A stretch of DNA of 57,155 nucleotides from a virus. Its lineage: Duplodnaviria; Caudoviricetes. Of this stretch, positions 5,757 through 53,337 are shown one piece after another. The stretch spans positions 1-57,155 of IMG/VR virus record IMGVR_UViG_3300049055_000031; one strand, written 5' to 3'. Position 1 is the first letter of the stretch. Each line of letters begins with the position of its first letter. The notes beneath the pieces were generated by a model. It searched no databases, was not told where the DNA came from, and saw only the letters and a program-made list of their open reading frames with translations. The position numbers and the translations under genes are program-made.

Positions 5757-6695
5757 CTAGTTGCATTCCCTAGCTGAGATCGACAATGAGTCTCCGATGT
5801 CTCGGGTAAGCCCAGCTCCGGCATCCACGGCAGCCCATCGTCCTTGAACTGTGTATGTTCCAGCGGCAATACCGGTGATATATCGGTGACCCGAAACACT
5901 CAGGTGGGCGTTGGCGGTGATGGCACCGCGCTGACGACAGATTTCGTAGTCAACAGCATTGATCAGTACACCGAACTTCGGGCCAATAGCCCCGTTCCCG
6001 GTGAAGAATCCAGCAGAGATCATGACGAACACTCGCGTGCTGGCAAACCGCTTCGTGAATGAGAAAGACGTCTGTGAGCCAGTACCAGCCATGTTCACAA
6101 ACGCAGTACTGGATGTGGTATCTGAGCCACTTGTCACCGCCTGCCCATTCACTCCATTCTCTGAACCACAAACATAGTCACCAGAGACCTTGAGGGCATC
6201 ACCCGTGGATGTCCCTAGTTCGTTCGCGGCTGTCCGGCCAAAGAAGGTATCTGGACCACTACCGCCACCTGGACCCCATCCAAACTGACCATCAGCTTGA
6301 AGTTGAAACCTCAGGTTGGCCTCAGCTCCAACACGAAGTCTCAGCATGTGAGCGGCAGCAACAGTCCCCTGACCGTTAAAGCCTTCACCACCGGTGTCTG
6401 TTGAGGGCCCAAGAAGATAGGGACCGTTACCTCCTCGACCGATCAGAAGAGGTATCCAGGTAGACAAAGTTGTAGACCACATGTAGTTGCGTCGAGTATC
6501 AGTCTCGTAGATTTCTCGCCCATCCCATCGATCAGCTCCAGTTGGGCGTGTACCGCTCGTACAGATGGTCACACCAACCGCAGCATCAATCTTGTCCATA
6601 GACTCATTGATGTCGGTGACGACATTGATGAAGTCTCCAGTACTTGGATCAGGATCAGGCTTCCGTAGAAGGAGTCGAGTTGTTGTCGTCGCCAC
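5757..6695 (-). CDS. Tail fibre / minor tail protein
   Basis: DINESMDKID...WDGREIYETDT N-terminus typical of actinophage minor tail proteins; G/T-rich. Confidence 0.7.
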   Translation of the reverse strand: MATTTTRLLLRKPDPDPSTGDFINVVTDINESMDKIDAAVGVTICTSGTRPTGADRWDGREIYETDTRRNYMWSTTLSTWIPLLIGRGGNGPYLLGPSTDTGGEGFNGQGTVAAAHMLRLRVGAEANLRFQLQADGQFGWGPGGGSGPDTFFGRTAANELGTSTGDALKVSGDYVCGSENGVNGQAVTSGSDTTSSTAFVNMAGTGSQTSFSFTKRFASTRVFVMISAGFFTGNGAIGPKFGVLINAVDYEICRQRGAITANAHLSVSGHRYITGIAAGTYTVQGRWAAVDAGAGLTRDIGDSLSISARECN

Positions 6696-6707
6696 TTCAT
6701 TTCCTCC

Positions 6708-22852: not shown

Positions 22853-24607
22853 CTATCCCGCCAGGATGTTTCGCGTTCCCTTAGAGAAGGGACGCAACTT
22901 GTCAAGAACGGCTAATGCGTAATCCAAAAAATTCCTTTGGCCCATATGGATTAAACCAGGCCCCACTGCCTCAATCCGGCTTCGAGCCCAGTCGATATCC
23001 GCCGTGGTGAACTTGTGGTTCTTGCTTATGCCGATGAAGATCTGTTCTGCAAACGGACCACTGGCGCTCAACTGCGGCATAGCCCGGCCACCAATGATGA
23101 CCGGTTGTGCGTGACCGTGGTCGATCGGGACAATCCGGCCTGCGTTACTGACCATCCAGTTACCCGTGTTGCGGTCTCCGTTTCGGATCAACAGATCAAA
23201 CAACCCGACTCGAAGCCCTTCATCCGATTCGGCAAGAGCAAAATGCTCTTTTCTCAATTCTGCCAGGTTTCCGGCCTTATTAGCCCTCACCTGAAGTTCA
23301 ACAGCCGTCTTCGCATCTCCAACGTAGTCCATCCAGACTTCTCCGGGATGGTTCCGATACACGCGCGGTGCTTTGGTCCCCAGTGCACCACCGATTACAG
23401 ACGAGGCCTGTTCGGCACCAGGGTTGCCAGCCGACTTGCGGACAAGCTTGGTACCATTAGCGAACGTCACCAGTTCAGTATCGGCAGACACACCGCCTGT
23501 CAGTTTTTGGACAGACTTAATAGCAGACTTCTCCACCGTATTGGCCAGGTCTTCAATACCCTTGATGCTGGTGTGATACGGCTGGGCGTTCTTCGGAACC
23601 GGTATCTCTTTCGGTGCCGGAGGAGGTGCGGTTTTCTTCGGTGCCGTTGTAGTCTTTTTGGGTGTCGGTGCTGTTTTCTTTGCTGTCGTCTTTTTGACAG
23701 GCTCCGGTTGACCCTTCAACCTCGCCAGGTTGGCGTCAAAGCGTCGGCGTAGTTCGTCATCGTACTTGCCGGATCGCACATCATCGGCGAATTTCCGGGG
23801 AGACACAGAGGTAGCAGTCAGGAAGCACAAACACTGCGGGTGTGGTTTACCTGGCACCTTCCCTCGTGGAAACTGTCCTGGTCCCAGGTTGTACTGATCC
23901 GACTCGGCCAGAGTGTTGCATTCGTCCTTGCGCGGGTGTGACCCAGACAGATTCCACTTCACTGACTCTACCCAGGGGAACTGAAACCCCTTGATCTGCT
24001 GGTTGTGAAAGGCGTTGTTTATCTCAGTGCGTGCCAACCGCATAGCGACGTACGACGCTCCACCCGGTGCCGTTGGCGATACAAACCGATAGACGTCTTT
24101 AGCCAACTCTCTTGCCGAGGCATTCCGCAGAATCCCGTTCCGAATCAACGTCTCGATATGATCGGTAGACCATTGGCCATTCTTGTACAGCCGAGTGGAC
24201 AATTCACGCTTGACCCGAGAGTAGAACGTATTGATCCCAGCCTGGGCAGAAGCCATCAGCGAGTCAACGAACTCGGTAGCCGCTGCCCGAGGCAACGACG
24301 ACAACCCGATACGTGCCAACTTCTCGAGGTCATCGGTGGCGAAGATGGCCGCTGCCAACTGACCTGCACGAATCTCGTCACCAATCGACAAGAACATATC
24401 AAGTTGAGTGCGTCGGATCTGCGACAGTACCAATCTCAACTGCGACGCTCGAATCGAGTCAGAAAACCGAGTCGAGACCTTGAGCTTTTCAACCCGTCGC
24501 TGAATGTCGAGTGCTGCCTCCTCGAGGATCTTCATGATCCGTTCATCGTACTGACGCTGCAAGCGCAAGTATCGCCTAAGCGGCTCCGGAAGCGCCATCG
24601 TCGCCAC
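22853..24607 (-). CDS. MuF-like minor head protein fused to a PI3/4K/HipA-like kinase domain
   Basis: RLARTEINNA...HPQCLC MuF motif; K/T/P linker; FDLLIRNGDRNTGN...IDHG kinase motifs. Confidence 0.85.
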   Translation of the reverse strand: MATMALPEPLRRYLRLQRQYDERIMKILEEAALDIQRRVEKLKVSTRFSDSIRASQLRLVLSQIRRTQLDMFLSIGDEIRAGQLAAAIFATDDLEKLARIGLSSLPRAAATEFVDSLMASAQAGINTFYSRVKRELSTRLYKNGQWSTDHIETLIRNGILRNASARELAKDVYRFVSPTAPGGASYVAMRLARTEINNAFHNQQIKGFQFPWVESVKWNLSGSHPRKDECNTLAESDQYNLGPGQFPRGKVPGKPHPQCLCFLTATSVSPRKFADDVRSGKYDDELRRRFDANLARLKGQPEPVKKTTAKKTAPTPKKTTTAPKKTAPPPAPKEIPVPKNAQPYHTSIKGIEDLANTVEKSAIKSVQKLTGGVSADTELVTFANGTKLVRKSAGNPGAEQASSVIGGALGTKAPRVYRNHPGEVWMDYVGDAKTAVELQVRANKAGNLAELRKEHFALAESDEGLRVGLFDLLIRNGDRNTGNWMVSNAGRIVPIDHGHAQPVIIGGRAMPQLSASGPFAEQIFIGISKNHKFTTADIDWARSRIEAVGPGLIHMGQRNFLDYALAVLDKLRPFSKGTRNILAG

Positions 24608-29507: not shown

Positions 29508-29797
29508 TGCCCTGACTCCTCGTCCTCATCGTCGTCAGCCCACCGGCCAACACCCCGGATGACATCTTTACCAATCTGCAGCAATCCCAGGGCCACATGA
29601 TCCGGCGTCGATCCACCCATGTACACAATCGGGTGTGCCGAGTCTTTGACCTCGCCGGTTTGCTCGTTCACCCTATGCTGATGGGCAATTAGAATCCAAC
29701 CGCTCAGAAAGCCATCCCATCCCAGAGCCTTGAAGTACTTCTCAACAGCCGCATCGAGCTCAGCTTGAGCGGCGATCTGTTCCGGAGTGTCGATCAC
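29504..29797 (-). CDS. Hypothetical protein
   Basis: Coupled overlaps; HVALGLL motif. Confidence 0.65.
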   Translation of the reverse strand: MIDTPEQIAAQAELDAAVEKYFKALGWDGFLSGWILIAHQHRVNEQTGEVKDSAHPIVYMGGSTPDHVALGLLQIGKDVIRGVGRWADDDEDEESGQ

Positions 29798-30579
29798 AGT
29801 CCATCCAACCGATGAGTGAGGTACTGGCGCCCACGAGCGTCAACCTCGACCACAAAGTCCTGGTACAGCGCAGGCTCCACCTGGTGAGCCCACTCGTAGA
29901 TCTCGCATGCCAGTTGACGGATCTCAGCATCGGCATGCAGCGACCCCCGTAGTTTCAGAAAGTGCCGCCATGCCCGGTGATTGCCGGTCATCACAATGCG
30001 CGTAGGCGTCATGTTGGGCAGCACACACCGAGCGGCCTCCCGAGACTCCTTCTTGAGCGCGGTCCCGGTCACACCTTCCCGGTACAACCGTGCCTCGGCG
30101 ATCTCAACCAACTCATCATACGCGCGCAGCGCCTCGTTCCATGCCCTCTCGAGGATTCCCTGAACCTCGGATGCTTCTGGATCACTGTCATCTGTGACCC
30201 ACCCCAACGAGTAGTACAATGGCGGGATGATGGGCTTCACCGATGCTGCCAGCTTCACAAACCGCTGAGACTCCTGCGAGGGAGACAGGTGTCGATGCCG
30301 GATCAACTCATGCGTGAGCGACCGCGACACGCCCTCGATGTAGAACGTGAACGTCCCATGCTCGAACGTGGAGGTGTGGTCCAACTCGAGAATGTGCGCC
30401 AGATACGCAGGATTAGCGGAGGTCTGAAGATTTGGTTTCTTCCACGACTGATAACACGCTCGACCGGCAAACTCCGCCAGCAGTGAACCATCGGGGTCTT
30501 TAGCCGTTCCCTCCCATCCGGTCAGATCGTGAGCAACCTCAGAGTTGAACGCAGTGCGACCTATCAGTGTGACTTTCAC
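29794..30579 (-). CDS. thyX: Flavin-dependent thymidylate synthase
   Basis: AGRACYQS, HTSTFEH, ELIRHRHLSPSQESQRFV, AR..LP, EIR motifs. Confidence 0.96.
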   Translation of the reverse strand: MKVTLIGRTAFNSEVAHDLTGWEGTAKDPDGSLLAEFAGRACYQSWKKPNLQTSANPAYLAHILELDHTSTFEHGTFTFYIEGVSRSLTHELIRHRHLSPSQESQRFVKLAASVKPIIPPLYYSLGWVTDDSDPEASEVQGILERAWNEALRAYDELVEIAEARLYREGVTGTALKKESREAARCVLPNMTPTRIVMTGNHRAWRHFLKLRGSLHADAEIRQLACEIYEWAHQVEPALYQDFVVEVDARGRQYLTHRLDGL

Positions 30580-41955: not shown

Positions 41956-42122
41956 GGTACTTAAGTCCGGTGGGCCGAGGAGTGAAAATCAACCTGTGCC
42001 GTGATCCAGCACTAGTCGCCGGTTGGTGCTGGCGGTTACGCACTCAGCGTTCTGAGTGGTACCTATGGCATTACCGGTGGAGAGTCAACATAAAGCGTGT
42101 TGTGATCAGGCAGGACGGCTGA
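41952..42122 (+). CDS. 56-aa Trp/Arg-rich protein
   Basis: SD GGAGAG; coupled overlaps. Confidence 0.45.
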   Translation: MRYLSPVGRGVKINLCRDPALVAGWCWRLRTQRSEWYLWHYRWRVNIKRVVIRQDG

Positions 42123-43657
42123 TGTTAAAATATAGATTCAAGACTAAGCCGTATCAACACCAGGTGAAAGGGATCAAATTCGTCTTCCGACAATGGAGTA
42201 ATGGTTTAGGCGCCGCATTGCTCTTCGATCCGCGTACGGGCAAGACCAAGACCAGTATCGACGCGGTAAGCATTCTGCACCTCAAGCATAACGTGAAGCG
42301 AATCCTGGTCATATGCCCTAACCGGGTGATGGGTACCTGGGTCCGTGAGTTCCACAACCACTGCCCGCTGCATGCCGATGTGATCCTGTGGGATGCGAAG
42401 GGACGCCGGAGAGCACTACCGCGCAACATCTCGCCGTATGACATCCAGGTAGTAGTGGTCAACTTCGACGCGTTCTCAACTCCCGGAAAGCGCTTACCCA
42501 GTGGACGACGATCGCGCAAGACCGGACGCTTCGCAGTGAGGAAAAAGATCAGGGAATGGATTGGAGATCAGCCTGCCGCTGCTATTGTGGACGAAGGACA
42601 TAAGATCAAGTCTCCATCAGGCAAAGCGTCAATGGCCATCGTGTCTATGCGTGACGACTTCGAGTACCGGTTGCTGCTGACCGGCACGCCGACTACCAAA
42701 GCACACCGCCTCCATGACGTATACATGCAGTGGCAGTGGGTCAACCCGCGTCGGTTCGCTAGGTGGGGTCCAGACGCTACAACGTTCCGCAACCATGTCG
42801 GGGTGTGGACCGAACGGAACGGTTTTCCGCAGTTCTTGCGTGCCAAGCCGAAAGGGGTTGAAGATGTGCGTCACGGAATGCACAAGGACGGGATGGTGGT
42901 CCGTCGTGAGGAGTGTTTCGACCTGCCTAAGAAAATGCCTGATCAGATAATCCCCGTCACCCTTTCGGCCAAATCTCGCAAGGTATACAACGACATGGCC
43001 GAGACCATGATTGCCGAGATCGAAGAAGGTGTGATTGCTGAGGCTGCCATCCCAGTTGTGGTGTTTCTCCGGCTTCAGCAGATCACAGGGGGATTCATCG
43101 GAATCACACCGCAGGACACCGACAACGCCAGCACGGGCAATCGCCGGTTGATGTCTCGTACCCACCGGTTCGGCTCGGAGAAACTCAAGGCTCTCGAGGA
43201 GATACTGGTCGATGAGTACCTTGAGACAGACAGTGATGAGAAAGTAGTTGTGGCTGCCAAGTACGTACGCGACCTTGACGACATCACCAAACTGTGCTTC
43301 AAGCTTGAGATTCCAATGTACAGCATACGCGGGGGGTTGACTCGAGCGCATACCGACGAACAGGTGATCAAGTTCCGCAAGCATAAGGGCATGGGGTTGA
43401 TGCTCGTACAACCCGACGCGGCGTCTCTTGGTATTGACCTATCGTCGGCTCCCCGAATGATCTGGTACTCACTGACCAACTCCTGGGTTAATTGGACACA
43501 GTGCTCAGACCGTATCGCGCTGTCACCCGTGCCGACGACATGCACCTATCTACAGGTGCCTGGCAGCGTGGATCAGTTGATGTATGAGGGATTGCTCAAT
43601 GATACAAACGTAGCCAAGTACATCATGAAACGACCGAAGAAACTGAGGCTGAAGTGA
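42122..43657 (+). CDS. SNF2-family helicase/translocase
   Basis: PYQHQ, DPRTGKT, DEGH, LLTGTP, SLGIDL. Confidence 0.9.
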   Translation: MLKYRFKTKPYQHQVKGIKFVFRQWSNGLGAALLFDPRTGKTKTSIDAVSILHLKHNVKRILVICPNRVMGTWVREFHNHCPLHADVILWDAKGRRRALPRNISPYDIQVVVVNFDAFSTPGKRLPSGRRSRKTGRFAVRKKIREWIGDQPAAAIVDEGHKIKSPSGKASMAIVSMRDDFEYRLLLTGTPTTKAHRLHDVYMQWQWVNPRRFARWGPDATTFRNHVGVWTERNGFPQFLRAKPKGVEDVRHGMHKDGMVVRREECFDLPKKMPDQIIPVTLSAKSRKVYNDMAETMIAEIEEGVIAEAAIPVVVFLRLQQITGGFIGITPQDTDNASTGNRRLMSRTHRFGSEKLKALEEILVDEYLETDSDEKVVVAAKYVRDLDDITKLCFKLEIPMYSIRGGLTRAHTDEQVIKFRKHKGMGLMLVQPDAASLGIDLSSAPRMIWYSLTNSWVNWTQCSDRIALSPVPTTCTYLQVPGSVDQLMYEGLLNDTNVAKYIMKRPKKLRLK

Positions 43658-44187
43658 AGCACATCATTGTCGAAGGCCCTGATGGCTCGGGCAAAACAAC
43701 TCTCGTCGCGCACCTTGCTCACACCTTGGGTATTCCGGTGCACGAGCGTGCGTCATCGTCGAAAGGTGGTCCTCGTCCAGATCTGTATGAATGGGTGATC
43801 TGGGACGCCAAGAAGAACCACCCTCGTACGGAGGACTCATGGATCTATGATCGGTACCCGGTGATCAGCGAGCCGATATACGGCCATCACGTCCGGCATG
43901 AAATCATGGTGCCCTTTGACCAAGAACCGTTTCTCACCGAGATCAAAGACGTTCTTTACACGTCATCCGTGGTGGTGTGGTGTCTGCCCAACTTGGACAC
44001 AGTATGCCGGAACGTATACGCCAATCCCCATGACCAGATGCCCGGGGTGGTGCTGAACATAGGTAAGGTGCATCAGGCGTACATGACCGCGTATTTTCGT
44101 TGGCGTGGTCCGAAGCGCCAGTACGACTACACGCGCCATGACCTAGTCTGGTTCACCGACGAGTTGAAAAGGATGATAATTGAATGA
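43654..44187 (+). CDS. dNMP (thymidylate-type) kinase
   Basis: IIVEGPDGSGKTT P-loop; IYDRY..SE.IYG. Confidence 0.88.
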   Translation: MKHIIVEGPDGSGKTTLVAHLAHTLGIPVHERASSSKGGPRPDLYEWVIWDAKKNHPRTEDSWIYDRYPVISEPIYGHHVRHEIMVPFDQEPFLTEIKDVLYTSSVVVWCLPNLDTVCRNVYANPHDQMPGVVLNIGKVHQAYMTAYFRWRGPKRQYDYTRHDLVWFTDELKRMIIE

Positions 44188-44792
44188 TCACCGACATCTT
44201 AGCCGCGATGATCGAGTCTCAGCGGTTGGTCCAGAAGGAACACGGGTATGATTTCACTGCCATGACCGACCAGGAACGCATGACCTACCTCAGCACCATG
44301 ACTACGGCATGCACTAGTGAACTGCACGAGGCGCTTGCTGAAACCGGGTGGAAGCCCTGGGCATCATCCAACCACATCAACCGCGAAGAGTGGATGGGGG
44401 AAATGGCCGATGCTTGGCTGTTCTTCATGAATCTCATGCTAGTCGGGGGAATGACGGCAGAGGATCTGACCCAGCGTACGGCCAAGAAGCAAGACAACGC
44501 ATACAAGCGGATCAGGGACGGCTACGACGGGGTGAGCACCAAGTGCCCACGATGCCGACGCGCATACGACAACGAGGGCGTGAAATGCACGCCGGGTGCA
44601 TTCGGGGAGCTGGGGCAATGTGCGTACGTATCTCCGGATGTCAAGGTAGATGTCAACCCGGATATCTCCTGCATCATCTGCGGGCATGACTACATGGACA
44701 CTAAGTGTGCCCCAGCCAGTGAGCAGGGATTCGGTTGGTGCCACACCCAGAGCAAGTCCTTCCATCTTGACGGGACAATCGTCGGTGCTTAA
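44184..44792 (+). CDS. All-alpha dUTPase/dCTPase (MazG-like) with two Cys4 repeats
   Basis: ELHEAL..GWKPW...EMADAWLF. Confidence 0.85.
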   Translation: MITDILAAMIESQRLVQKEHGYDFTAMTDQERMTYLSTMTTACTSELHEALAETGWKPWASSNHINREEWMGEMADAWLFFMNLMLVGGMTAEDLTQRTAKKQDNAYKRIRDGYDGVSTKCPRCRRAYDNEGVKCTPGAFGELGQCAYVSPDVKVDVNPDISCIICGHDYMDTKCAPASEQGFGWCHTQSKSFHLDGTIVGA

Positions 44793-45762
44793 TTCCTTCG
44801 TGTACGACGACATTGACGATATGCATGAGACAGTGTGCAGCGCATTCTTTCGAGGTCGACTGGGTGAGGAATTCAACTGGCTTGGATCGTCTGAAGTCGG
44901 ACTGGACAATGTGACGTTGGGCGTTCGGTCGTTCGCTATACCGAGCATGGATTTGTCCCGTCTGTGGCTGACCCAGTCTCGATGGAACACCATGGTTCGG
45001 CAGTACATCAACCCCGATGCCCTCGACGCTACCCTGGGTATGGTAGAAGACCATCTCGCCAGGTCCAAGCGCAAGTCCGGTACGGCAACGCTTCGACTCA
45101 TGGCAACCGAGATATTATCCGGTGACGATCCCGGAGATGAAGTGATCGAATTGCAAACCAAGCTGGTCGAGGGTAAGAAATCGGGCAGGCAGGTTCGCCG
45201 GAGGTGGGGGTCATGCATGCTGGCTCTGACATACCGTAATGTGCCACATCCCACAGTGACCCTGACCAGCCGGACAACGTACTTCGGTTACCTCGCCATC
45301 ATGGACGCGATGGTAGCAAATGTCTTCGCCCAGAAGTGCGGTGCCATCGTCGGCATTGACCCTGAGGTGATGCGGTTTGTGTGGCACATCAACCTGGCAC
45401 AGTACCACGGCTTTCGGTCGCTGGCGTACCCGGCTGGCAATCCACGCATGTTGAAGTTCCTGGATCAATGCGTGGATGATGAGGCAAGATGGAAGAAATT
45501 GAAGACCGAAGGACGATTCGGAGTGCTCCGTACTCTCACCGGGTATCGACGGATATTGCAGTCAGATCGCGAAAAGCGTTTGTACGGAGACGAATCCTTC
45601 TCCTCTTTCTGTCGCGTACGCCGGAGGTTTCATACCGAGGTGCACGGATTCGACTACGCAAGTCAGTTCAATGGGGGAACCAGAATCGGCAGCACGAAGG
45701 CGTTCAAGCCGGTACCCTCATTGCCCGCAGAGTTATTGACGTTCTCAGCCATAGGGAGATAG
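44785..45762 (+). CDS. Divergent thymidylate-synthase-fold protein
   Basis: GSCML...SRTTYFGYLAIMD...WHINLAQYH aligns to the TS PC...RSxD...N/D...LH segments; GTG start inferred. Confidence 0.6.
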   Translation: MLNSFVYDDIDDMHETVCSAFFRGRLGEEFNWLGSSEVGLDNVTLGVRSFAIPSMDLSRLWLTQSRWNTMVRQYINPDALDATLGMVEDHLARSKRKSGTATLRLMATEILSGDDPGDEVIELQTKLVEGKKSGRQVRRRWGSCMLALTYRNVPHPTVTLTSRTTYFGYLAIMDAMVANVFAQKCGAIVGIDPEVMRFVWHINLAQYHGFRSLAYPAGNPRMLKFLDQCVDDEARWKKLKTEGRFGVLRTLTGYRRILQSDREKRLYGDESFSSFCRVRRRFHTEVHGFDYASQFNGGTRIGSTKAFKPVPSLPAELLTFSAIGR

Positions 45763-45764
45763 AC

Positions 45765-46004
45765 ATGCCGACACCACCCCATGACCTCGATGAGAAACGA
45801 GCGGACTTGATCCGCCAGTTCAAAGAATATCAACTGCAGGTATCAGAGGCCTTCGATGGGGTCCTGTCGGCATTGAACGATGGTCGCTTTGCTGAAGCCT
45901 GTAGCATCATGCTTACTATCAGTCGACACCAAGGACAAGCATCAGTCGGCATGCGAACGGTTCTTGTCAAGAACGGGTTTCTGGTCAGGGAGAAAACAGA
46001 ATGA
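45765..46004 (+). CDS. 79-aa helical protein between the TS paralogues
   Basis: SD AGGGAG; ATGA overlap with next gene. Confidence 0.65.
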   Translation: MPTPPHDLDEKRADLIRQFKEYQLQVSEAFDGVLSALNDGRFAEACSIMLTISRHQGQASVGMRTVLVKNGFLVREKTE

Positions 46005-46900
46005 TTCAGTCAGGGCAAGATGAGGTCGTCAACTTCCACAGTGGGGTAATGCCGTATCTTGCAGCAACGTTGCTGGATACCGACCCTGTACACATTGGAG
46101 AGTGGCAGTCAAAGGACACATCGGCAGTCCCTCACATGGCCACTTACGAGGTCATGGATATGCAGATCCGGATTGACGTCCCGAGAACCGACGTTGATCT
46201 AGCCCTGATGCTGGGCGAAGATCTAAACCTACCGTGGGCGGAGGAACACTTCGCTGAGAGAGTCAGCGGTAGGCCGTTCAATCCCCCGCCCTCGCACAAG
46301 GACTGGCCATGGGCTAAGTACAACGGTAACCACCAGACCGGCGATGAACAACAGTTCAGCCACACCTACCCTGAGCGCATGTGGCCGAAGCATGCTGGGT
46401 TGGGCAATGCTCCGGTTCCACCTGTGTTTGATGGCAACCACCATCGCGGTATCCGGTTCGACTACGGAGACCTGGATGATGTCGTAGACCTGCTGGTTCG
46501 GTCACCGTTGACACGTCAGGCGTATCTGCCCATCTGGTTCCCCGAGGACACTGGAGCACACCACCGGCAACGGGTACCGTGCACCCTCGGATACCACTTC
46601 ATGATCCGTGAATCTCAACTGTCGTGCCGGTACTATATGAGATCATGTGACCTCATCCGGCATTTCACCGATGATCTCTACATGGCTGCTCGTCTGATGC
46701 AGTGGATAACCGATCAACTGAACATGTGCCCAAACCCATGGCATGACTCAGCTCCTGCTCGAAAAGTCCTTGTCTGTCCGGAGTGCAAGTCGTCCGTCAA
46801 GACAGGTCGCTTGATCATGTACATCTCGAGCCTTCACGCATTCACCGGCGATGCGTACAAACTCAAGCAGATCAAGGACAGAGCTAATGTCGATCGGTGA
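46001..46900 (+). CDS. ThyA/dCMP-hydroxymethylase-family enzyme
   Basis: TRQA, VPCTLGYHFMIR, MRSCDLIRHFTDD, SLH. Confidence 0.9.
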   Translation: MIQSGQDEVVNFHSGVMPYLAATLLDTDPVHIGEWQSKDTSAVPHMATYEVMDMQIRIDVPRTDVDLALMLGEDLNLPWAEEHFAERVSGRPFNPPPSHKDWPWAKYNGNHQTGDEQQFSHTYPERMWPKHAGLGNAPVPPVFDGNHHRGIRFDYGDLDDVVDLLVRSPLTRQAYLPIWFPEDTGAHHRQRVPCTLGYHFMIRESQLSCRYYMRSCDLIRHFTDDLYMAARLMQWITDQLNMCPNPWHDSAPARKVLVCPECKSSVKTGRLIMYISSLHAFTGDAYKLKQIKDRANVDR

Positions 46901-47384
46901 AGCAACCCGACCAACGCGCGAAGAGACCCTCATGAGGCAGGCTGAGATCGTCGCAGAGCGCTCGACATGCTCCCGCGCACATGTGGGTGTGGTCATCGCC
47001 CATGAGGGCCGTATCGTGTCCCAGGGGTACAACGGTGCGCCTGCCGGGATGGACCACTGTAGTCACGATTGCTCGTGCGGCCTGGACTATGATCCCACCG
47101 ACGTTGAGGATGAGCACTTGACATCATGTCCGGTCGGTGCTTCGACTCGTACCGGATGCAAGGTATCTGTTCATGCCGAGGCCAACGCCATAGCATTCGC
47201 GGCCAAGCATGGTGTTGCCACCGGTGGCGCGGTGCTGTTCACCACGATGGCTCCGTGCCTGGCCTGTGCCCAACTCATCATCAACGCGGGTATCATGCGG
47301 GTGGTGTACGCTCGACCGTATCGGTTCGATGAAGGCCTTCAACTCTTGATTGAGGCCGGTGTAATGGTGGAGTTCGGAGGATGA
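46887..47384 (+). CDS. dCMP deaminase
   Basis: RSTC, GYNG, HAEANAI, PCLAC. Confidence 0.93.
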   Translation: MSIGEATRPTREETLMRQAEIVAERSTCSRAHVGVVIAHEGRIVSQGYNGAPAGMDHCSHDCSCGLDYDPTDVEDEHLTSCPVGASTRTGCKVSVHAEANAIAFAAKHGVATGGAVLFTTMAPCLACAQLIINAGIMRVVYARPYRFDEGLQLLIEAGVMVEFGG

Positions 47385-50029
47385 ACAAACGCCTGAGATT
47401 GGCGGTGCGCAATGCCGCATGTGCCGACTGCAAGTTGTCTAAAGACACTGACGACGAAGACATATGCATCACAGGCAGCGGACCGAATGACGCGATCATA
47501 GGGATTGTAACTCAGTTCCCAACGAACCCTGATTCGTCACACCGCGCGGTTATTGAGGAGACATTATCCAGTCTCGGGTTAGACCCCAGAACGTTCATGT
47601 GGATGTCCGCTGTGAAGTGCCGGGCATGGTCGGCAACGCCGAGCAAGGGAGACCTGAGGGCGTGCCGACCATACCTCACCAAAGAACTACAGTTCCTGAA
47701 CCTGACCCATGTGATCGCGTTCGGCAATGAGGCCCTGTTCGCGGCAACTGGCCGGAGCGGAATCACGAAGTGGCGCGGTCAGTTGTACGACCATCCGGCT
47801 GGACCTGTCATCTTCCCGACAATCAGTCCCTCTATGGTGTCGCGTAATCCCCGGTTTGCCGAGGGGTTCGCCGGAGACCTGCGATACTTCGCTAACCTGG
47901 TTCGTGGTGTAGAGGTCGAAGAGGACCCGTGGCATCTTCCCTTTGACGACCAGTGGACAAACGTTCTCACGAAGAAAGACCTGCAAACGATGGGTAAATC
48001 CATCGAGACGGCAGATGCAATCTCCTACGACATTGAGACCAATGGGGCATCAGAGGTCAAGACTGGGGCCAAGATAATGTCTCTCGCGGTAACCACCCTG
48101 CATTGGGTCGAAGACAAACCCGACCATGAGGGACGTGCGCATGTGTGGGCGTTACCGCTGGCGCATCCCGAGTCACCGTGGTTGCACATCTGGGAGCGTG
48201 TACTCAGGTGGTTGGCAAAGCGGATGTACAAACCGCGCTATCGTATCGCGCATAATGCCAAGTTTGACACCCGATGGCTTGTCCACTTCGGCATGCCCAA
48301 ACTGCTACCCACATTCGACACGATTATCGCTGCTGCTCTTCTGAATGAGAACCGCCAGAAGGGCCTGAAGCCACTGGCCCAGCAGATTCTTTCGGCCGAT
48401 CCATGGGCGATTGACACGAAAGACATTGCCACCACACCACTTGACGAAGTGCTAGACTACAACGGCCTAGACACATGGCACACCCTTCGACTCTGGATGC
48501 ACTTCCGCAAGGAACTCCAGGCGCAGCCACGGCTTGCCAAGTTGATGCTCCACCTCATGATGCCAGCCATTCAGGAGCTCGTCCATGTGGAGCGCCATGG
48601 GGTGTATGTGGACCAAGACCAACTGCTCAACAACTGGGCAATCGCTCAGGGCACGCTGGCTGGTATCGAAGCCGAGCTGATGACACACGTTCCAGACCCC
48701 GACGAAGTGCCGGATAACCTGAAGCACAAAAAGACTGGTGAAGTCAATGTCAACTGGAACGCATCCAACTTCTTACGGTGGTTGCTTTACGAGCACATAG
48801 AACTGCCGGTGATTCGACGAGGCAAGGTGAAAGACAACGGGTCACCCGGTGATCCATCATGCGCCGAGGACATCATGATGATGCTGGCGCCTGAGCATGA
48901 CGTACCTCGGCTACTGGTTGACCGCGTAGAGTGGAACAAGTTCAACACTTCCTTCTTCGGTCCATATGTCGAGCAGTTGAAAGAATCACCGGACGGACGA
49001 ATCAGATCCACATTCAAGCCGTGGGGTACAGTTACCGGCCGGTTGTCTTCAGGCAAAGAGGATAAAGAGAAGATCACAGGTAGGTCACAACTTCGCGGAG
49101 TTAATCTCCAGCAGGTCCCCCGTAACAAGTTGGTTCGCGGCGTGTTCGGAGCTGCTCCTGGTTGGGCATTCGTCGAAGCAGACTACAGCCAGATTGAGTT
49201 GCGGCTGGCGGCATTCCTCGCACAGGAACGCACCATGCTGAGCCTGTATGCCAGTGGACAAGACATCCATATGGCAATGGCTATGCGCATGACCGGTAAA
49301 CCCGCACACCTGGTCACCGCAGAGGAACGCAAGAAGGCTAAGGCAGTGAACTTCGGGTTCCTTTATGGCATGGGATGGGCCAAGTTTATTCACACCGCCT
49401 TCGCCAATTATGGTGTGATCGTAACCGAGGAAGAGTCTCGAGCCTTCCGCAAGTCGTTCTTCGATCAGTTCCCAGATCTCCTTCCATGGCACGCTCGGCA
49501 GCGTCGACTAGCGATGCAGTTCAAACGAGTAGAGACCCCGATGGGTCGCATTCGCCACCTACCCGACATTGACTCTTCGAATCCTGAGGTTCGATCTGAG
49601 GCTGAACGTCAGGCCATCAACTCACCAGTGCAGGGATTCGCATCGGACATGGCGTTGCTGTCGTTGGTCCACACCTCCCGGTTGTTCCGGCGTGTTGGCA
49701 TCCAAGCGTACCCCATTGGTGCCGTACACGATGCGGTGAACTTCGAGATTCGTATTGACGATCTTCCGGTTGCCCTACCGCTGATTAAGCAAACAATGGA
49801 GAATCTGCCCTTGGATCGGCTTTTTGACATCAACCTCACTGTGCCCATCGTGGCAGACCTCAAGGTGGGTTCGCACTGGGGCGGGGCTACTGAGATTCCG
49901 GCCAAACTTCTGAAGGTGCGTGGCGGTGACGGTGACAAAGCCGACACTGAACTGATTGAATGGTTGGCGGAGGAAATGCATTACAACATGAGGAAGTGGG
50001 ATGGCAATGGGCGAAAACTTGCTGCCTGA
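47381..50029 (+). CDS. polA: Family A DNA polymerase with N-terminal UDG-4-like domain and 3'-5' exonuclease
   Basis: CADCKL..VKC..ACRPYL; DIET, HNAKFD; DYSQIELR, KAVNFGFLYG, VHD. Confidence 0.95.
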   Translation: MNKRLRLAVRNAACADCKLSKDTDDEDICITGSGPNDAIIGIVTQFPTNPDSSHRAVIEETLSSLGLDPRTFMWMSAVKCRAWSATPSKGDLRACRPYLTKELQFLNLTHVIAFGNEALFAATGRSGITKWRGQLYDHPAGPVIFPTISPSMVSRNPRFAEGFAGDLRYFANLVRGVEVEEDPWHLPFDDQWTNVLTKKDLQTMGKSIETADAISYDIETNGASEVKTGAKIMSLAVTTLHWVEDKPDHEGRAHVWALPLAHPESPWLHIWERVLRWLAKRMYKPRYRIAHNAKFDTRWLVHFGMPKLLPTFDTIIAAALLNENRQKGLKPLAQQILSADPWAIDTKDIATTPLDEVLDYNGLDTWHTLRLWMHFRKELQAQPRLAKLMLHLMMPAIQELVHVERHGVYVDQDQLLNNWAIAQGTLAGIEAELMTHVPDPDEVPDNLKHKKTGEVNVNWNASNFLRWLLYEHIELPVIRRGKVKDNGSPGDPSCAEDIMMMLAPEHDVPRLLVDRVEWNKFNTSFFGPYVEQLKESPDGRIRSTFKPWGTVTGRLSSGKEDKEKITGRSQLRGVNLQQVPRNKLVRGVFGAAPGWAFVEADYSQIELRLAAFLAQERTMLSLYASGQDIHMAMAMRMTGKPAHLVTAEERKKAKAVNFGFLYGMGWAKFIHTAFANYGVIVTEEESRAFRKSFFDQFPDLLPWHARQRRLAMQFKRVETPMGRIRHLPDIDSSNPEVRSEAERQAINSPVQGFASDMALLSLVHTSRLFRRVGIQAYPIGAVHDAVNFEIRIDDLPVALPLIKQTMENLPLDRLFDINLTVPIVADLKVGSHWGGATEIPAKLLKVRGGDGDKADTELIEWLAEEMHYNMRKWDGNGRKLAA

Positions 50030-50183
50030 GGGACAACAAGTGTACGAGGGCTTGGAGATGTGGCTAAAAGCTCGCCGTGATGAACAACGTCAGCCGATCG
50101 CCCGACAGGCCATTGACGCATTGCTTGACGAGGTTCGTGAAGACGGAGCGGAGGGCTGGCTTCCGTGGCAAAAGGGACTCTGA
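50007..50183 (+). CDS. Hypothetical protein
   Basis: Overlaps polA end and exonuclease start. Confidence 0.55.
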   Translation: MGENLLPEGQQVYEGLEMWLKARRDEQRQPIARQAIDALLDEVREDGAEGWLPWQKGL

Positions 50184-51259
50184 CGTTCAACGGCCCAGCG
50201 CTGTATCTCGATGGAGGTAAGCGCGTCACGACGCACAGCATGATCTCATGCATGCGCAGATGCGCGAACCAGGCCAGATACAAGTACGCCGAGCGTCTGA
50301 AGATCCGATACGCCACTAAGCGTGACCGGCCGTTGAAGCGGGGTACGTGGTTCCATGCATTGCTTGAGGAGCACTATGCCGGTCGATCGTGGAAAGCGAT
50401 GCATGCTCGATTCACGCTCCAGTACGAGGCGTTGTTCGATGAGGAGAAAGAGGCTCTCGGGGATCTCCCCAACGAACTCCGGAACATGATGAGATCTTAC
50501 CTCTGGCACTACGGTGCCGACAAGGAAGACCCCTACCACGGCACGCGCACAGTCGGTACCGAAGTAACGCTTGAGTGCCCATGGCCGGACAGCAAAGACG
50601 GACTGGACATCTACCGGTGCCGGATTGATCGGATCTATGAGGACGAGTGGGGATTGTGGGCGGAGGATCACAAAACAAACCTGCGCCTACCGAGTCACAC
50701 CTTCCGTCAACTCGACGCGGCGAGTCCTCTCTACATCTGGTGTCTGCACGAAAACGGGTATCCGGTCAGTGGGTTCGTATGGAACTACATACGCGCTAAG
50801 ATTCCTAGTATGCCCAAGCTGACGCAATCGGGTCGGTTGTCAAGGGCTGCCATAGACACCGACTATCCGACAATGGTGCGTGGCCTGAGGCAACTCGGGT
50901 TGAACCCGGGAGATTACAAGAGCCTACTCCGCCCGTTGTATGACCAGAGGTATAAATACAATAAGGTGCAGACCTCAACGTTTTTCCGGCGTGATACGCT
51001 AGAAAAGGACCTTGGAATGATTCAGCGCGCTGTGGCCTCCGGCATGCGCACTCGGGATCGACTACACAATTACGATTGGGAAGACACCGATTCAGTTGAG
51101 CGGTCAGTTGAACGAACATGCGAAACCATGTGTTCATTCTGCAATCTCTGCACTGTAGAACTAATCGGGGGAGACGCAAAGACACTCCGAAAGCGACTGT
51201 TCCGCATTGGTGACCCACTCGATTACTACCACGATAAACCAGATCCTGAGACAAGTTGA
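50165..51259 (+). CDS. PD-(D/E)xK Cas4/RecB-like exonuclease
   Basis: C near N-terminus, RGTWFHALLE, RIDRI..EDHKT, C...CSFCNLC. Confidence 0.88.
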   Translation: MAKGTLTFNGPALYLDGGKRVTTHSMISCMRRCANQARYKYAERLKIRYATKRDRPLKRGTWFHALLEEHYAGRSWKAMHARFTLQYEALFDEEKEALGDLPNELRNMMRSYLWHYGADKEDPYHGTRTVGTEVTLECPWPDSKDGLDIYRCRIDRIYEDEWGLWAEDHKTNLRLPSHTFRQLDAASPLYIWCLHENGYPVSGFVWNYIRAKIPSMPKLTQSGRLSRAAIDTDYPTMVRGLRQLGLNPGDYKSLLRPLYDQRYKYNKVQTSTFFRRDTLEKDLGMIQRAVASGMRTRDRLHNYDWEDTDSVERSVERTCETMCSFCNLCTVELIGGDAKTLRKRLFRIGDPLDYYHDKPDPETS

Positions 51260-51307
51260 CCGGTAGTCCACACCGCGAAACGATGAACACCCGAACGGAG
51301 GGGCAAT

Positions 51308-51778
51308 ATGGATTACCGACCATCGGCCGAACGTACTCGGTCTCGCCGTTGGCGTGCCGGAAGCCGACGAAACAAGAGATACTCAATCACGCACATTCAG
51401 GTATGCCCCATGCCCGAGGTATGCCTGATCCATCGCAAAGGTGTGTTCCCCCGGCATCCAGCGATGGCTATGAAGTTGACTCGATGTGAGCAGCAGTGGG
51501 TTGATGACATGCGCTCGGATCATGTGCACATCCACATGAACCAAAGGCGCAAACCGTGGGAGACAGCCCTGCTTGCATTGCGTCAGAGAATCAACACTGA
51601 ACGGTTCCGGCGATCAGGTACTATCAACCAGTGCAGTCCTGGGATTGGCATGGATTACGGCTACCACAACCCCTATGCCCTGAGCGGAATGGTGGGAGCC
51701 ATGGACATTGCCATAGAAAATGCCCGTCAGGCTGAACTGTACCGAATGCAACTTCAGGCAATAACCAATGGCCGGTAA
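51308..51778 (+). CDS. Hypothetical protein
   Basis: SD GGAGGGG. Confidence 0.55.
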   Translation: MDYRPSAERTRSRRWRAGSRRNKRYSITHIQVCPMPEVCLIHRKGVFPRHPAMAMKLTRCEQQWVDDMRSDHVHIHMNQRRKPWETALLALRQRINTERFRRSGTINQCSPGIGMDYGYHNPYALSGMVGAMDIAIENARQAELYRMQLQAITNGR

Positions 51779-52580
51779 AACCAACTACTCGGCCCTTGCC
51801 AAGCAGCATATCCGGATGCCAGACACCGACAAGCCCCGGATGCCGCGAATCCTGGTGTACGGCCGGAACAAGAAGGGCAAGACGACATTCGGCAACAGCG
51901 CGCCGGATGTGCTGGCACTCGACCCCGACGACCAGCCCAAGGCCCTCAGGCCAACTTGGCCCATCGAACAATGGGAGGACATGCACGAGGCCTATCTCTA
52001 TCTCCGGGCTGGTAATCACCCTTACAAGTGGATCAATGTAGACGGGTTGTCGAAGATCTACGTGTACGCTCTCCGGTGGGTTCGGCGTGAAAGCGAAGAG
52101 CGCGCTAAGGCGATGGACAAGAAGCCGGGAATGAAAAAGATCCAGCATTACGGCTGGGCAAACGATCTCTTTGAAACCATGCTGAACAACTTCCACTCGC
52201 TCCGTGACCTGGGTATTGTGTTCACCGCACAGGAGCGAATGGTTGGTGTGTCCGAGCTGGACGACAACACCGACGACGATGACTACACACCAACATCTTA
52301 CCAGTACGTAGTACATTTGCCCAAAGGCGCTCGTGCGCCGCTGAATGCCATAGTTGACTTGACCGGTCGTATCTACGTTGTGAGAGGGGACTTCGAGCGA
52401 CGGGTTAAAGTCAATGGCGAGTGGGAAATCCAGGAGTACAGGAAACAACGTCGTCTCTTGATCGGAGTAGACGACATGTACGAAACCGGATACCGATCTG
52501 ACTTCGTACTTCCCGATATCATCGAAGACCCGACCGTGAAGAAAGTGGTCAGGGCGTTACGAACAGGAGTGGTGAAGTAA
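51768..52580 (+). CDS. AAA_24/Sak4-like recombinase ATPase
   Basis: ILVYGRNKKGKTT; NVDGLS; FTAQE. Confidence 0.85.
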   Translation: MAGKTNYSALAKQHIRMPDTDKPRMPRILVYGRNKKGKTTFGNSAPDVLALDPDDQPKALRPTWPIEQWEDMHEAYLYLRAGNHPYKWINVDGLSKIYVYALRWVRRESEERAKAMDKKPGMKKIQHYGWANDLFETMLNNFHSLRDLGIVFTAQERMVGVSELDDNTDDDDYTPTSYQYVVHLPKGARAPLNAIVDLTGRIYVVRGDFERRVKVNGEWEIQEYRKQRRLLIGVDDMYETGYRSDFVLPDIIEDPTVKKVVRALRTGVVK

Positions 52581-52581
52581 A

Positions 52582-53337
52582 GTGGCAGCCAAGACTAAGA
52601 CCTTGGATTTCAGTGGTGTCGAGGATCGCGCTGGCAACTTCCGGCCTCGCCGGAAACCGGAGGGTGACTACTATGCAGTCATCACCGACGTCTCGGATCA
52701 CACCTCCAAGGAGGGTAACGACGGTTGGGTTTTCACGGTCAAGGTGAACGGTGACAGCCGGGCTACCTACCCGTACTACTGCAACTTCGACAAGGAGCAA
52801 CTGTGGAAGTCGCGGGGTCTCTGCATCGCGGCTGGCCTCAAGGTTCCTTCGTCCAAGGTCAAGATGGACCCCAACAAGTTGGTTGGCCGGGGTATCGGCA
52901 TCGCCCTTGAAGACGACGAGTACGAGGGTCGAATGAAGTCGGTCATCGCCGCCGTGTTCCCCAAGGACGACATCTCCGACGCGCGCAACGACGGGGACGC
53001 CAAGTCATCTAAGGCCAAGGCCAAGTCCCGCCAGGCCGAAGAGGACGACGACGAGGACGACGACGAGGACGAAGAAGAAGAAACCCCGAAGCGTAAGGGC
53101 AAGAAGTCGCGCAAACCGGAACCCGACGACGATGAAGACGAGGACGAGGACGAGGACGAGGAGTCCCCGGCCAAGTCCAAGAAGGGCAAGTCCAAGTCCA
53201 AGAAGTCGCGCGATGACGACGACGAAGATGAGGACGACGACGAGCCACCGGCCAAGAAGTCCAAGTCCAAGAAAAAGGGCAAGAAGGCCCGTGACGAGGA
53301 CGACGATGATGATGAGCTGGACATCGACGATCTGTGA
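52582..53337 (+). CDS. Single-stranded DNA-binding protein (DUF669-like) with long D/E-K tail
   Basis: PEGDY, DEYEGR motifs; acidic C-terminus; follows recombinase. Confidence 0.8.
   Translation: MAAKTKTLDFSGVEDRAGNFRPRRKPEGDYYAVITDVSDHTSKEGNDGWVFTVKVNGDSRATYPYYCNFDKEQLWKSRGLCIAAGLKVPSSKVKMDPNKLVGRGIGIALEDDEYEGRMKSVIAAVFPKDDISDARNDGDAKSSKAKAKSRQAEEDDDEDDDEDEEEETPKRKGKKSRKPEPDDDEDEDEDEDEESPAKSKKGKSKSKKSRDDDDEDEDDDEPPAKKSKSKKKGKKARDEDDDDDELDIDDL

Follow-up and report, generated by a model that had tools for sequence, protein, structure and literature searches.

What does a phage do with two proteins of the thymidylate synthase (TS) fold encoded in one operon with its DNA polymerase? This question is raised by IMG/VR virus record IMGVR_UViG_3300049055_000031 (Duplodnaviria; Caudoviricetes), whose 57,155 nucleotides, rated 100% complete by CheckV, are called the window here. 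In its open reading frame (ORF) list, a tightly packed block of plus-strand genes runs from 42056 to about 53800. The block includes genes for a nucleotide kinase, an all-alpha dNTP pyrophosphatase, a protein that we call the divergent TS-fold protein, a 79-aa ORF, a TS-family protein, a deaminase and the polymerase. The original prediction, made from the sequence alone, was that these genes, accompanied by a separate intact thyX, form a cytosine-modification pathway built on the two TS-fold genes. The ORF list and the Pfam and PHROGs scans placed every one of these genes where they had been expected. By analogy with known pathways, we lean, with modest conviction, towards the view that cytosine nucleotides are modified by the module before they enter DNA. 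The TS-family protein is predicted to be a folate-dependent dCMP C5-transferase, and the divergent protein may be a second enzyme of the same superfamily.

At the level of sequences and profiles, the divergent protein shows no similarity to Thymidylat_synt. It matched nothing in Pfam, NCBIfam, a PDB phmmer search or a PDB profile search, and its match in PHROGs is a family labelled "unknown" (phrog_13667, E 2.3e-66). Forty-eight distant members of its family also matched no Pfam family and gave two sub-threshold matches to unrelated families. Comparison of its 116-sequence profile with the 51-sequence profile of the neighbouring TS family by hhalign detected no similarity (probability < 1%). 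The fold was examined in an AlphaFold2 model, built on 44 homologs, with a mean predicted local distance difference test (pLDDT) score of 88 and a predicted template-modelling score of 0.86. The top seven PDB matches of this model in Foldseek were the dCMP hydroxylase AfhB of phage HY126 (E 4.2e-5) and MilA, and the best matches also included T4 dCMP hydroxymethylase and ThyA. In VIA-align, the Z values were 14.1 for AfhB (190 residues, root-mean-square deviation 3.7), 13.0 for MilA and about 10 for ThyA. A search independent of Foldseek found only seven of 48,161 representative PDB chains at Z>=8, all from the TS superfamily: 9iqc (13.8), MilA (11.8), four ThyA-type TS, one of them fused to dihydrofolate reductase (DHFR) (8.6-9.3), and T4 dCMP hydroxymethylase (8.5). 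The next chain scored 5.0. Thus, according to the model, the divergent protein has the TS fold, and the check on a missing TS fold that accompanied the original prediction came out on the side of the fold.

Two regions set the divergent protein apart. Residues 109-141 are a disordered loop in the model (all pLDDT < 50); an insertion of about 20 residues lies within them (window 45109-45207), just before the RRWGSC motif, and is missing from gp47 of phage Muddy and gp77 of phage KimJongPhill. At the other end there is an extra helical C-terminal region of about 100 residues, with an Arg-rich motif, RVRRRFH, near the C-terminus. In the ESM Atlas the protein falls only among clusters of viral "hypothetical protein", one of which carries PF00303 on 37% of its members; this is a lead consistent with the TS-fold result and nothing more. 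In the isolated actinophage records that we inspected, the gene is called "hypothetical". The depositors of Yersinia phage P744 labelled their version "pyrimidine hmase synthase", so the TS-like nature of the gene has already been noticed in annotation.

The predicted active-site residues are where a TS-superfamily enzyme would have them. In the model, C144 stands just before the strand 145-151, R163, T164 and Y166 lie at the end of the strand 157-166, and D174 is at the start of the helix 171-189. This is the superfamily order of Cys, strand, hairpin, Arg-bearing strand and a helix that opens with the base-reading residue. We infer that C144, R163-T164-Y166 and D174 match the order of C146, R166-S167-D169 and N177 in ThyA. 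In the motifs of the two window proteins, RSCDLIRHFTDD and RTTYFGYLAIMD, an Asp stands 11 residues after the Arg; the original prediction had singled out this Asp, and it proved to be highly conserved in both families.

A library of 1.84 billion proteins contains 144 representatives of the divergent family at the 50% identity level. To measure conservation, we used 115 representatives (<=50% identity, from an all-against-library HMMER search) and the window protein, a set of 116 that is independent of word patterns. G142, C144 and R163 were present in 116/116 members, S162 in 113 and R66 in 110. D174 was present in 114/116, the remaining two having Glu. At the putative equivalent of ThyA D169, 86 members have Tyr, 10 have Phe and the other 20 have Ser, Leu, Arg, His or other residues. 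Thus the earlier statement that the divergent copy keeps the Cys and has Tyr at the folate-contacting Asp is borne out, by C144 in all 116 members and Y166 in 86. The Tyr also means that the protein lacks the Asn of D169N, which the accessible text of PMC13326640 gives as the mark of flavin-dependent 5-hydroxy-dCMP synthases. Among 52 sequences from viral contigs, G142, C144, R163, D174, S162, R66 and Y166 are all invariant, partly by construction because this set was found with the pattern RRWGSCM. The far more distant versions from Pseudomonas phage PMBT14 and Serratia phage Opt-155 match the family hidden Markov model (HMM) weakly (E ~1e-5), and ORF027 of Yersinia phage P744 falls below it, yet is homologous to PMBT14 gp48 (E 2.6e-54). 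These three keep G-x-C-M, Y-R-[SA]-T-E and the Asp 11 residues after the Arg, and in place of the Tyr of the actinophage proteins they carry Glu. Taken on sequence, the conservation is the pattern that a working active site reading cytosine would leave. It should be mentioned that one related viral contig (L024:5866-7796) carries two tandem copies of the divergent gene (5866-6873 and 6873-7796) ahead of the TS-family gene.

The second gene of the pair is a recognizable, although distant, TS-family member. Its match to PF00303 (E 6.6e-7) scores 29.2 bits, where the cut-off is 24.3, and spans positions 110-196 of the 266 in the profile; all five NCBIfam TS equivalogs are far below their cut-offs (e.g. 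37.7 vs 174.6). Its profile has MilA CMP hydroxymethylase as the best PDB match (E 3e-6), and its AlphaFold2 model (pLDDT 78) aligns with human TS at VIA Z 17.1 over 207 residues. Beside the Z of 13.8-14.1 between the divergent protein and AfhB, this agrees with the earlier assignment of a TS fold to both genes.

The TS-family protein was placed in an alignment with three others: ThyA of E. coli, gp42 of T4 and the ThyA homolog of PaMx74, a phage with 5-methylcytosine (5mC). C194 and R214 are the equivalents of the catalytic Cys146 and Arg166. D225 lies on ThyA N177 and gp42 D179; the Asn177 of uracil specificity is therefore replaced by Asp, as it is in 51/51 relatives, and together with C194 this Asp makes the pair seen in gp42. 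T195 is found at ThyA H147 and M213 at Q165, and gp42 also has Thr and Met there. Further equivalences are R214-S-C-D217 with ThyA R166-S-C-D169, Y123 with Y94, and W102 and W104 with W80 and W83; the motif S-S-L-H-A-F takes the place of G-D-T-H-L-Y in ThyA and G-S-L-H-V-Y in gp42. The motif around the catalytic Cys is R191-V-P-C194-T195. Like gp42, the protein stops about 20 residues past the His equivalent to H207, whereas ThyA and the PaMx74 homolog run more than 50 residues further, and so the C-terminal tail that seals the folate site of ThyA is missing. Of the set that marks Xp12-type enzymes (Asp177, a ThyA-like tail and DHFR), the Asp is present and the tail is absent, and no DHFR family turned up among the window ORFs scanned. 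In an alignment of 51 TS-family sequences, R191, P193, C194, R214 and D225 were found in 51/51 and D217 in 50/51, and position 195 was Thr in 40 and Ser in 11.

These positions have been given functional meaning. The accessible text of PMC13326640 reports that N177D switches TS to dCMP and that hydroxymethyl products are associated with acidity of the residue at L143. In the part of PMC8670742 available to us, positions 177 and 147 are the best discriminators of modified and unmodified metavirome contigs. T4 dCMP hydroxymethylase, as described in the available part of PMC6400193, has no counterpart of the C-terminal tail with which ThyA closes up for hydride transfer, activates water by Asp145 and releases tetrahydrofolate instead of dihydrofolate, so that no DHFR is needed. 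Because the TS-family protein has the cytosine-selecting Asp, keeps the folate-holding residues and has no tail for reductive methylation, hydroxymethylation is the more likely reaction. Likewise, since it has no ThyA tail and has the H147T and Q165M replacements in common with gp42, its product would more likely be 5-hydroxymethyl-dCMP than 5-methyl-dCMP.

Both genes belong to a module that recurs in many phages. By tblastn, the divergent protein was found in 85 phage records, all of them actinophages (68 Gordonia, 9 Mycobacterium, 4 Streptomyces, 2 Microbacterium, 1 Curtobacterium and 1 Mycobacteroides). The TS-family protein was found in 116 phage records, which add phages of Serratia, Pseudomonas, Yersinia, Brevundimonas and Desulfofustis. 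The annotated gene order is helicase/primase, kinase, dUTPase/MazG, hypothetical, thymidylate synthase, deaminase, DNA polymerase I and Cas4 exonuclease, and it is common to Muddy (gp50-gp43), KimJongPhill, PMBT14, P744 and Opt-155; GTE2-like Gordonia phages and Streptomyces phages carry it as well. Muddy gp45, labelled hypothetical, is a dCMP deaminase (PF00383, E 2.5e-18). We also fetched 51 IMG/VR loci with the divergent family and searched them by phmmer with the window proteins; the counts are given in Table 1. In every untruncated locus, the kinase, divergent, TS-family, deaminase and polymerase genes are on one strand and in one order; this gene order was seen in 50/51 of the contigs, and the two TS-fold genes are adjacent in 50/50 loci. 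Genes are missing where loci end at a contig end (L009, L053, L054, L058); otherwise, the kinase is missing from L047, and the pyrophosphatase was undetected by phmmer in 10 loci.

Table 1. Positions of the module genes and of other features of the window, with the number of the 51 fetched IMG/VR loci in which phmmer detected each module gene.
Feature	Position	Strand	Family matches and remarks	Loci (of 51)
SNF2-type helicase	42056..43657	+	PF00176 E 1.9e-23, PF00271 E 3.4e-11; first gene of the conserved block	49 (upstream)
P-loop nucleotide kinase, thymidylate-kinase-like	43654..44187	+	phrog_761 "thymidylate kinase" E 2.2e-13	49
All-alpha dUTPase_2/MazG-type dNTP pyrophosphatase	44184..44792	+	PF08761 dUTPase_2 E 7.1e-6; phrog_18650 E 1.9e-31; phrog_173 E 7e-10	41
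Divergent TS-fold protein, 325 aa	44785..45762	+	no Pfam family; predicted fold	50
79-aa ORF between both TS-fold genes	45765..46004	+	no family match	
TS-family protein (Thymidylat_synt), 299 aa	46001..46900	+	PF00303	50
dCMP/dCTP-type zinc deaminase	46851..47384	+	PF00383 E 2.3e-22	49
Uracil-DNA glycosylase (UDG)-like/exonuclease/PolA polymerase	47381..50029	+	PF03167 E 3.9e-11, PF01612 E 8e-13, PF00476 E 4.8e-72	48
Exonuclease				33
ThyX flavin-dependent thymidylate synthase	29794..30579	-	PF02511 E 2.5e-51; apart from the operon	
Primase-like/AAA_25 protein, 742 aa	38877-41105	-		
251-aa protein with acidic tail	52582-53337		phrog_14876 E 4.1e-47; phrog_3724	
Head-morphogenesis/protease-like protein	22853-24607	-	phrog_17987 E 1.4e-40	

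The other enzymes of the block fit a nucleotide pathway. In the kinase, Pfam matches cover the P-loop only; TIGR00041 dTMP kinase also matches only there (E 5e-4, far below cut-off), and no PDB sequence match was better than E 0.1. We infer that it acts on a (modified) dNMP. The pyrophosphatase would be a dCTPase/dUTPase. Its family matches span residues ~4-138, and the last ~80 residues are rich in Cys and His, with several C-x2-C-like pairs, which suggests a zinc-binding tail; the Muddy homolog is shorter (152 aa). PDB matches of the deaminase include 2hvv, 1vq2 (T4 cd), 4p9c and 7fh4, and its true start may be downstream of 46851. In the UDG-like domain of the polymerase (47381-47860), the Pfam UDG match starts at profile position 34 of 141, leaving the region for the first catalytic motif unmatched. 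The 79-aa ORF begins 3 nt past the upstream stop and overlaps the TS-family start by 4 nt. It has no family match in Pfam, PHROGs or NCBIfam. Homologs were found in the same gap in 8/50 loci by jackhmmer and in six by phmmer, in closer relatives only; Muddy and KimJongPhill have no counterpart, and in at least seven loci there is no gap to fill, the end of one TS-fold gene overlapping the start of the other by 4 nt. Thus, this ORF is probably a real gene, accessory to the module and outside its core.

Published neighbourhoods support a link between this kind of operon and cytosine-modified DNA. According to the accessible part of a preprint (bioRxiv 10.1101/2024.12.05.627091), deaminase genes within 3 kb of a TS gene were 104/149 on cytosine-modified contigs and 17/277 on unmodified contigs. 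The commonest neighbours were Thymidylat_synt, MafB19-deam, PRA-PH, and DNA_pol_A with an exonuclease; 85.1% of the neighbouring TS homologs had dCMP-type active sites, more than 60% of 56 active deaminases preferred 5-methyl-dCTP (5mdCTP) and/or 5-hydroxymethyl-dCTP (5hmdCTP), and the five TS homologs assayed made 5-methyl-dC. This domain set is that of the window, except that the pyrophosphatase is dUTPase_2 and not PRA-PH in Pfam. The accessible part of the same preprint does not mention a second TS-fold gene; since the divergent gene has no Pfam family, it would be invisible in a Pfam-based neighbourhood plot.

From these observations, we propose that the block reprogrammes pyrimidine nucleotides before replication, in the manner of T4 and Xp12, with cytosine as its target. 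The pyrophosphatase would return dCTP (and dUTP) to the monophosphate. In the TS-family enzyme, Cys194 would attack C6 of dCMP while Asp225 reads the N3/N4 edge of cytosine, and the one-carbon unit of methylene-tetrahydrofolate would be moved to C5, giving 5-hydroxymethyl-dCMP more probably than 5-methyl-dCMP. The thymidylate-kinase-like kinase would take the product to the diphosphate, host enzymes would help it reach the triphosphate, and the phage polymerase would incorporate the modified dCTP. The deaminase may provide dUMP for ThyX or a host TS, or it may turn a 5-substituted dC nucleotide into a T-type nucleotide, as related phage deaminases do. The divergent protein would be a second, catalytically competent enzyme for cytosine nucleotides with a remodelled cofactor pocket (Tyr or Glu at ThyA Asp169). 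Its probable role would be another type of C5 reaction, with either dCMP or the product of the TS-family enzyme as substrate; candidates are a second C5 transfer with another product, an oxidation or hydroxylation, and a further conversion of the first product. Of the original prediction, the TS folds, the conserved Cys, Arg and cytosine-selecting Asp, and the operon setting are supported, and cytosine modification is the probable reading; the pathway as a whole is not new in kind, and ThyX is no part of its conserved core.

Several observations weigh against this proposal. The match of the TS-family protein to Pfam covers only the core of the family, and its NCBIfam TS scores are far below cut-off. 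At the L143 position it has Arg191 (51/51 relatives) where gp42 has Asp, so the acidic water-activating residue of the gp42 type is absent, and the R21 "DRTG" motif is not visible in the alignment with ThyA, gp42 and PaMx74. Therefore, it is not a plain gp42 orthologue. The residue equivalences of the divergent protein come from motif spacing and the predicted order of secondary structure, and not from a residue-level superposition. The kinase looks like thymidylate kinase rather than T4 gp1, a feature that a T-type product would accommodate too. The isolated actinophages that carry the module, among them Muddy, number more than 80 and have been handled routinely. In the window region 42001-52000, 0.99-1.00 of sampled words occurred in 20 soil metagenome runs from 14 studies (2019-2025), all of them flagged as possible sources of the virus record; because the genome was assembled from ordinary soil runs, any modification does not block standard sequencing. 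5mC and 5-hydroxymethylcytosine are compatible with standard library preparation. Finally, searches of the open-access literature, with few subscription journals, found no report of modified DNA in isolates that carry the module. The papers on Yersinia phage P744 and Rhodococcus phage WC1 have nothing on DNA modification, and in the main text of the former the words "restriction", "modif", "thymidylate" and "hmase" each occur 0 times.

The distribution of ThyX bears on a different use of the same enzymes. ThyX was found in 14/49 related records and in 11/35 of those at least 90% complete; it is present in KimJongPhill and absent from Muddy. In this phage ThyX may indeed be a source of dTMP, as the original prediction had it, but it lies outside the conserved system. 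Canonical ThyA is also lacking in the 35/49 records, Muddy included, that have no ThyX, and the module may therefore be the sole phage-borne route to T in them. If so, a TS-fold enzyme would convert dCMP to 5-methyl-dCMP, the deaminase would pass it on to a thymidine nucleotide, the main effect would be a larger supply of dTTP, and virions would contain little or no modified C. Deamination of 5mdCTP to dTTP is Xp12-type logic in the accessible part of bioRxiv 10.1101/2024.12.05.627091, and the kinase is thymidylate-kinase-like. However, the same pathway in Xp12-type phages leaves 5mC fully replacing C (PMC9206674, in its accessible part), ThyX in this phage and in 13 related records would be redundant, the short C-terminus speaks against reductive methylation by the TS-family enzyme, and nothing in such a bypass gives a reason for keeping two TS-fold enzymes. 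We regard it as improbable, though the most serious of the alternatives.

The kinase would suit a thymine analogue as the end product as well: 5-hydroxymethyl-dCMP could be deaminated to 5-hydroxymethyl-dUMP and phosphorylated to replace some T, perhaps with further processing. Some related phage deaminases turn 5hmdCTP into 5hmdUTP (accessible part of bioRxiv 10.1101/2024.12.05.627091), and UDG-fused family A polymerases are found in phages with T modifications (available part of PMC13697223), to which we give little weight. Against such a product, ThyX, as identified by its sequence, would make ordinary dTMP in this phage, and the polymerase has no demonstrated place in the SP15-like or SPO1-like groups. 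The family scans covered 64 ORFs with Pfam and 60 with PHROGs, of about 60 aa and longer; among these ORFs there was no 5-hydroxymethyluracil DNA kinase, aGPT-Pplase or other family of post-replicative T modification. We find this outcome very doubtful. Among the same ORFs no DHFR family turned up, and no glycosyltransferase family did, as the original prediction had noted; neither arabinosyl- nor glycosyltransferase genes lie near the divergent gene.

That the divergent protein is a regulatory or structural partner of the TS-family enzyme, as a pseudo-enzyme or heterodimer subunit, would suit the adjacency of the two genes in 50/50 loci, often with a 4-nt overlap, and the obligate dimers of TS-family enzymes, which share phosphate-binding arginines across the interface (PMC6400193, in its available part), but Cys and Arg in 116/116 and Asp in 114/116 members at <=50% identity speak of an active site and not of a degenerate subunit, and no fusion was found among longer proteins (570-2000 aa) searched for the divergent domain, which is weak evidence; we give this idea little credence.

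With cytosine modification as the preferred reading, how much of the system is new? The pathway type is already known from T4 and Xp12. As far as the open literature shows, what is new is that two cytosine-type TS-fold enzymes are constantly paired next to a polymerase in phages of Actinobacteria and Proteobacteria; in the same open-access literature we found no study of the divergent family. The earlier suggestion that the chemistry may be new has to give up the pathway as a whole, for which T4 and Xp12 are precedents, and may apply to the extra TS-fold enzyme and its product. For this second enzyme, new chemistry is a fair possibility. The stronger claim, that it founds a new class of the TS superfamily with a C5 reaction beyond methylation, hydroxymethylation and the known flavin-dependent hydroxylation, perhaps on the product of the neighbouring enzyme, is possible but on balance unlikely; if true, a textbook enzyme family would gain a branch, and a large cross-phylum group of phages, Muddy included, would carry a cytosine derivative so far undescribed. 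Replacing bases before replication is one of the major means by which phages escape restriction and CRISPR nucleases, and the enzymes of base replacement are now tools for epigenetic sequencing. The module is no rarity, being fixed beside the polymerase in phages of both phyla, and Muddy is a therapy phage used against Mycobacterium abscessus. If these phages do carry modified cytosine, this would affect their restriction behaviour, their engineering and sequencing, and how their host range is read.

Other features of the window are as follows. Structural and lysis genes occupy the minus strand from about 2.6 to 27.5 kb. Near 41 kb (~41100), gene orientation and GC skew change sign together; the primase-like protein lies just left of this strand switch, with the plus-strand replication block on its right, and the switch may be an origin or a divergent early promoter region. 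Downstream of the polymerase are a Cas4-like nuclease, a Sak4-like protein and a resolvase-like endonuclease. The 251-aa protein has a conserved N-terminal half and a C-terminal tail of ~90 residues of extreme Asp/Glu/Lys/Ser low complexity; it is possibly a replication factor like single-stranded DNA-binding proteins or a DNA mimic. In the head-morphogenesis/protease-like protein, a short Pfam PI3_PI4_kinase match (residues 469-500, E 1.3e-6, 28.9 bits vs cut-off 27.1) is probably a chance local match. Megablast against the phage collection gave no record near-identical to the block; as judged from the 20-run match, the phage or very close kin is widespread in soil.

Four known systems can be compared with the module. 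MilA, the CMP 5-hydroxymethylase of mildiomycin biosynthesis (5b6d, 5jnh), comes first among the PDB profile matches of the TS-family protein (E 3e-6) and second among the structural matches of the divergent protein (Z 11.8-13); its residue at N177 is Asp. It differs in having a ribonucleotide substrate, which nothing in the window indicates for the phage enzymes, in belonging to a Streptomyces antibiotic pathway and in the Asp that it carries at L143. Among solved structures, those of the flavin-dependent 5-hydroxy-dCMP synthases (RB69 gp48, DLP3 gp80 and HY126 AfhB; 9iqu, 9iqc) come nearest to the divergent protein. These share with it the Cys, the equivalent of Asp177 and the loss of Asp at D169; their signature is D169N (PMC13326640, accessible text), whereas the divergent protein has Tyr, Phe or, in the proteobacterial phages, Glu. 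It is also only 10% identical to AfhB-type enzymes and has the extra helical C-terminal region of about 100 residues. The 5mC phages Xp12 and PaMx74 (Pamexvirus) resemble the window in that a pyrophosphatase, a dCMP-type deaminase and a ThyA homolog whose residue at N177 is Asp are encoded side by side; in Xp12-type phages, the accessible part of PMC9206674 reports, the pathway leaves 5mC in place of all C. The single TS homolog of PaMx74 ends in a long ThyA-like C-terminus, and a DHFR stands beside the deaminase, the ThyA homolog and the pyrophosphatase. In the window, by contrast, there are two TS-fold genes, the TS-family enzyme is short-tailed, and the ORFs scanned include no DHFR. Five other PaMx74 proteins gave no convincing match to the divergent profile (best E 0.0044 among 8 sequences, --max). 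The fourth system is the dCMP hydroxymethylase pathway of T4. The TS-family protein is like gp42 in its Thr at H147, its Met at Q165, its SLH motif and its lack of a C-terminal tail, and unlike it in having Arg and not Asp at the L143/Asp145 position and a long, strongly conserved, atypical N-terminal half. The kinase (thymidylate-kinase-like) and the pyrophosphatase (dUTPase_2) are of other families than those of T4, the thymidylate synthase is ThyX and is dispensable among relatives, and the window has no glucosyltransferase among the scanned ORFs and has an extra TS-fold enzyme. The logic of the T4 pathway (gp56 dCTPase/dUTPase, gp42, gp1 dNMP kinase, cd deaminase and td TS) is also that of the window: in both, a TS-fold dCMP C5-transferase (a predicted one in the window) that has Asp at N177 is accompanied by a pyrophosphatase, a kinase and a dCMP deaminase, and thymidylate synthase is a protein of its own.

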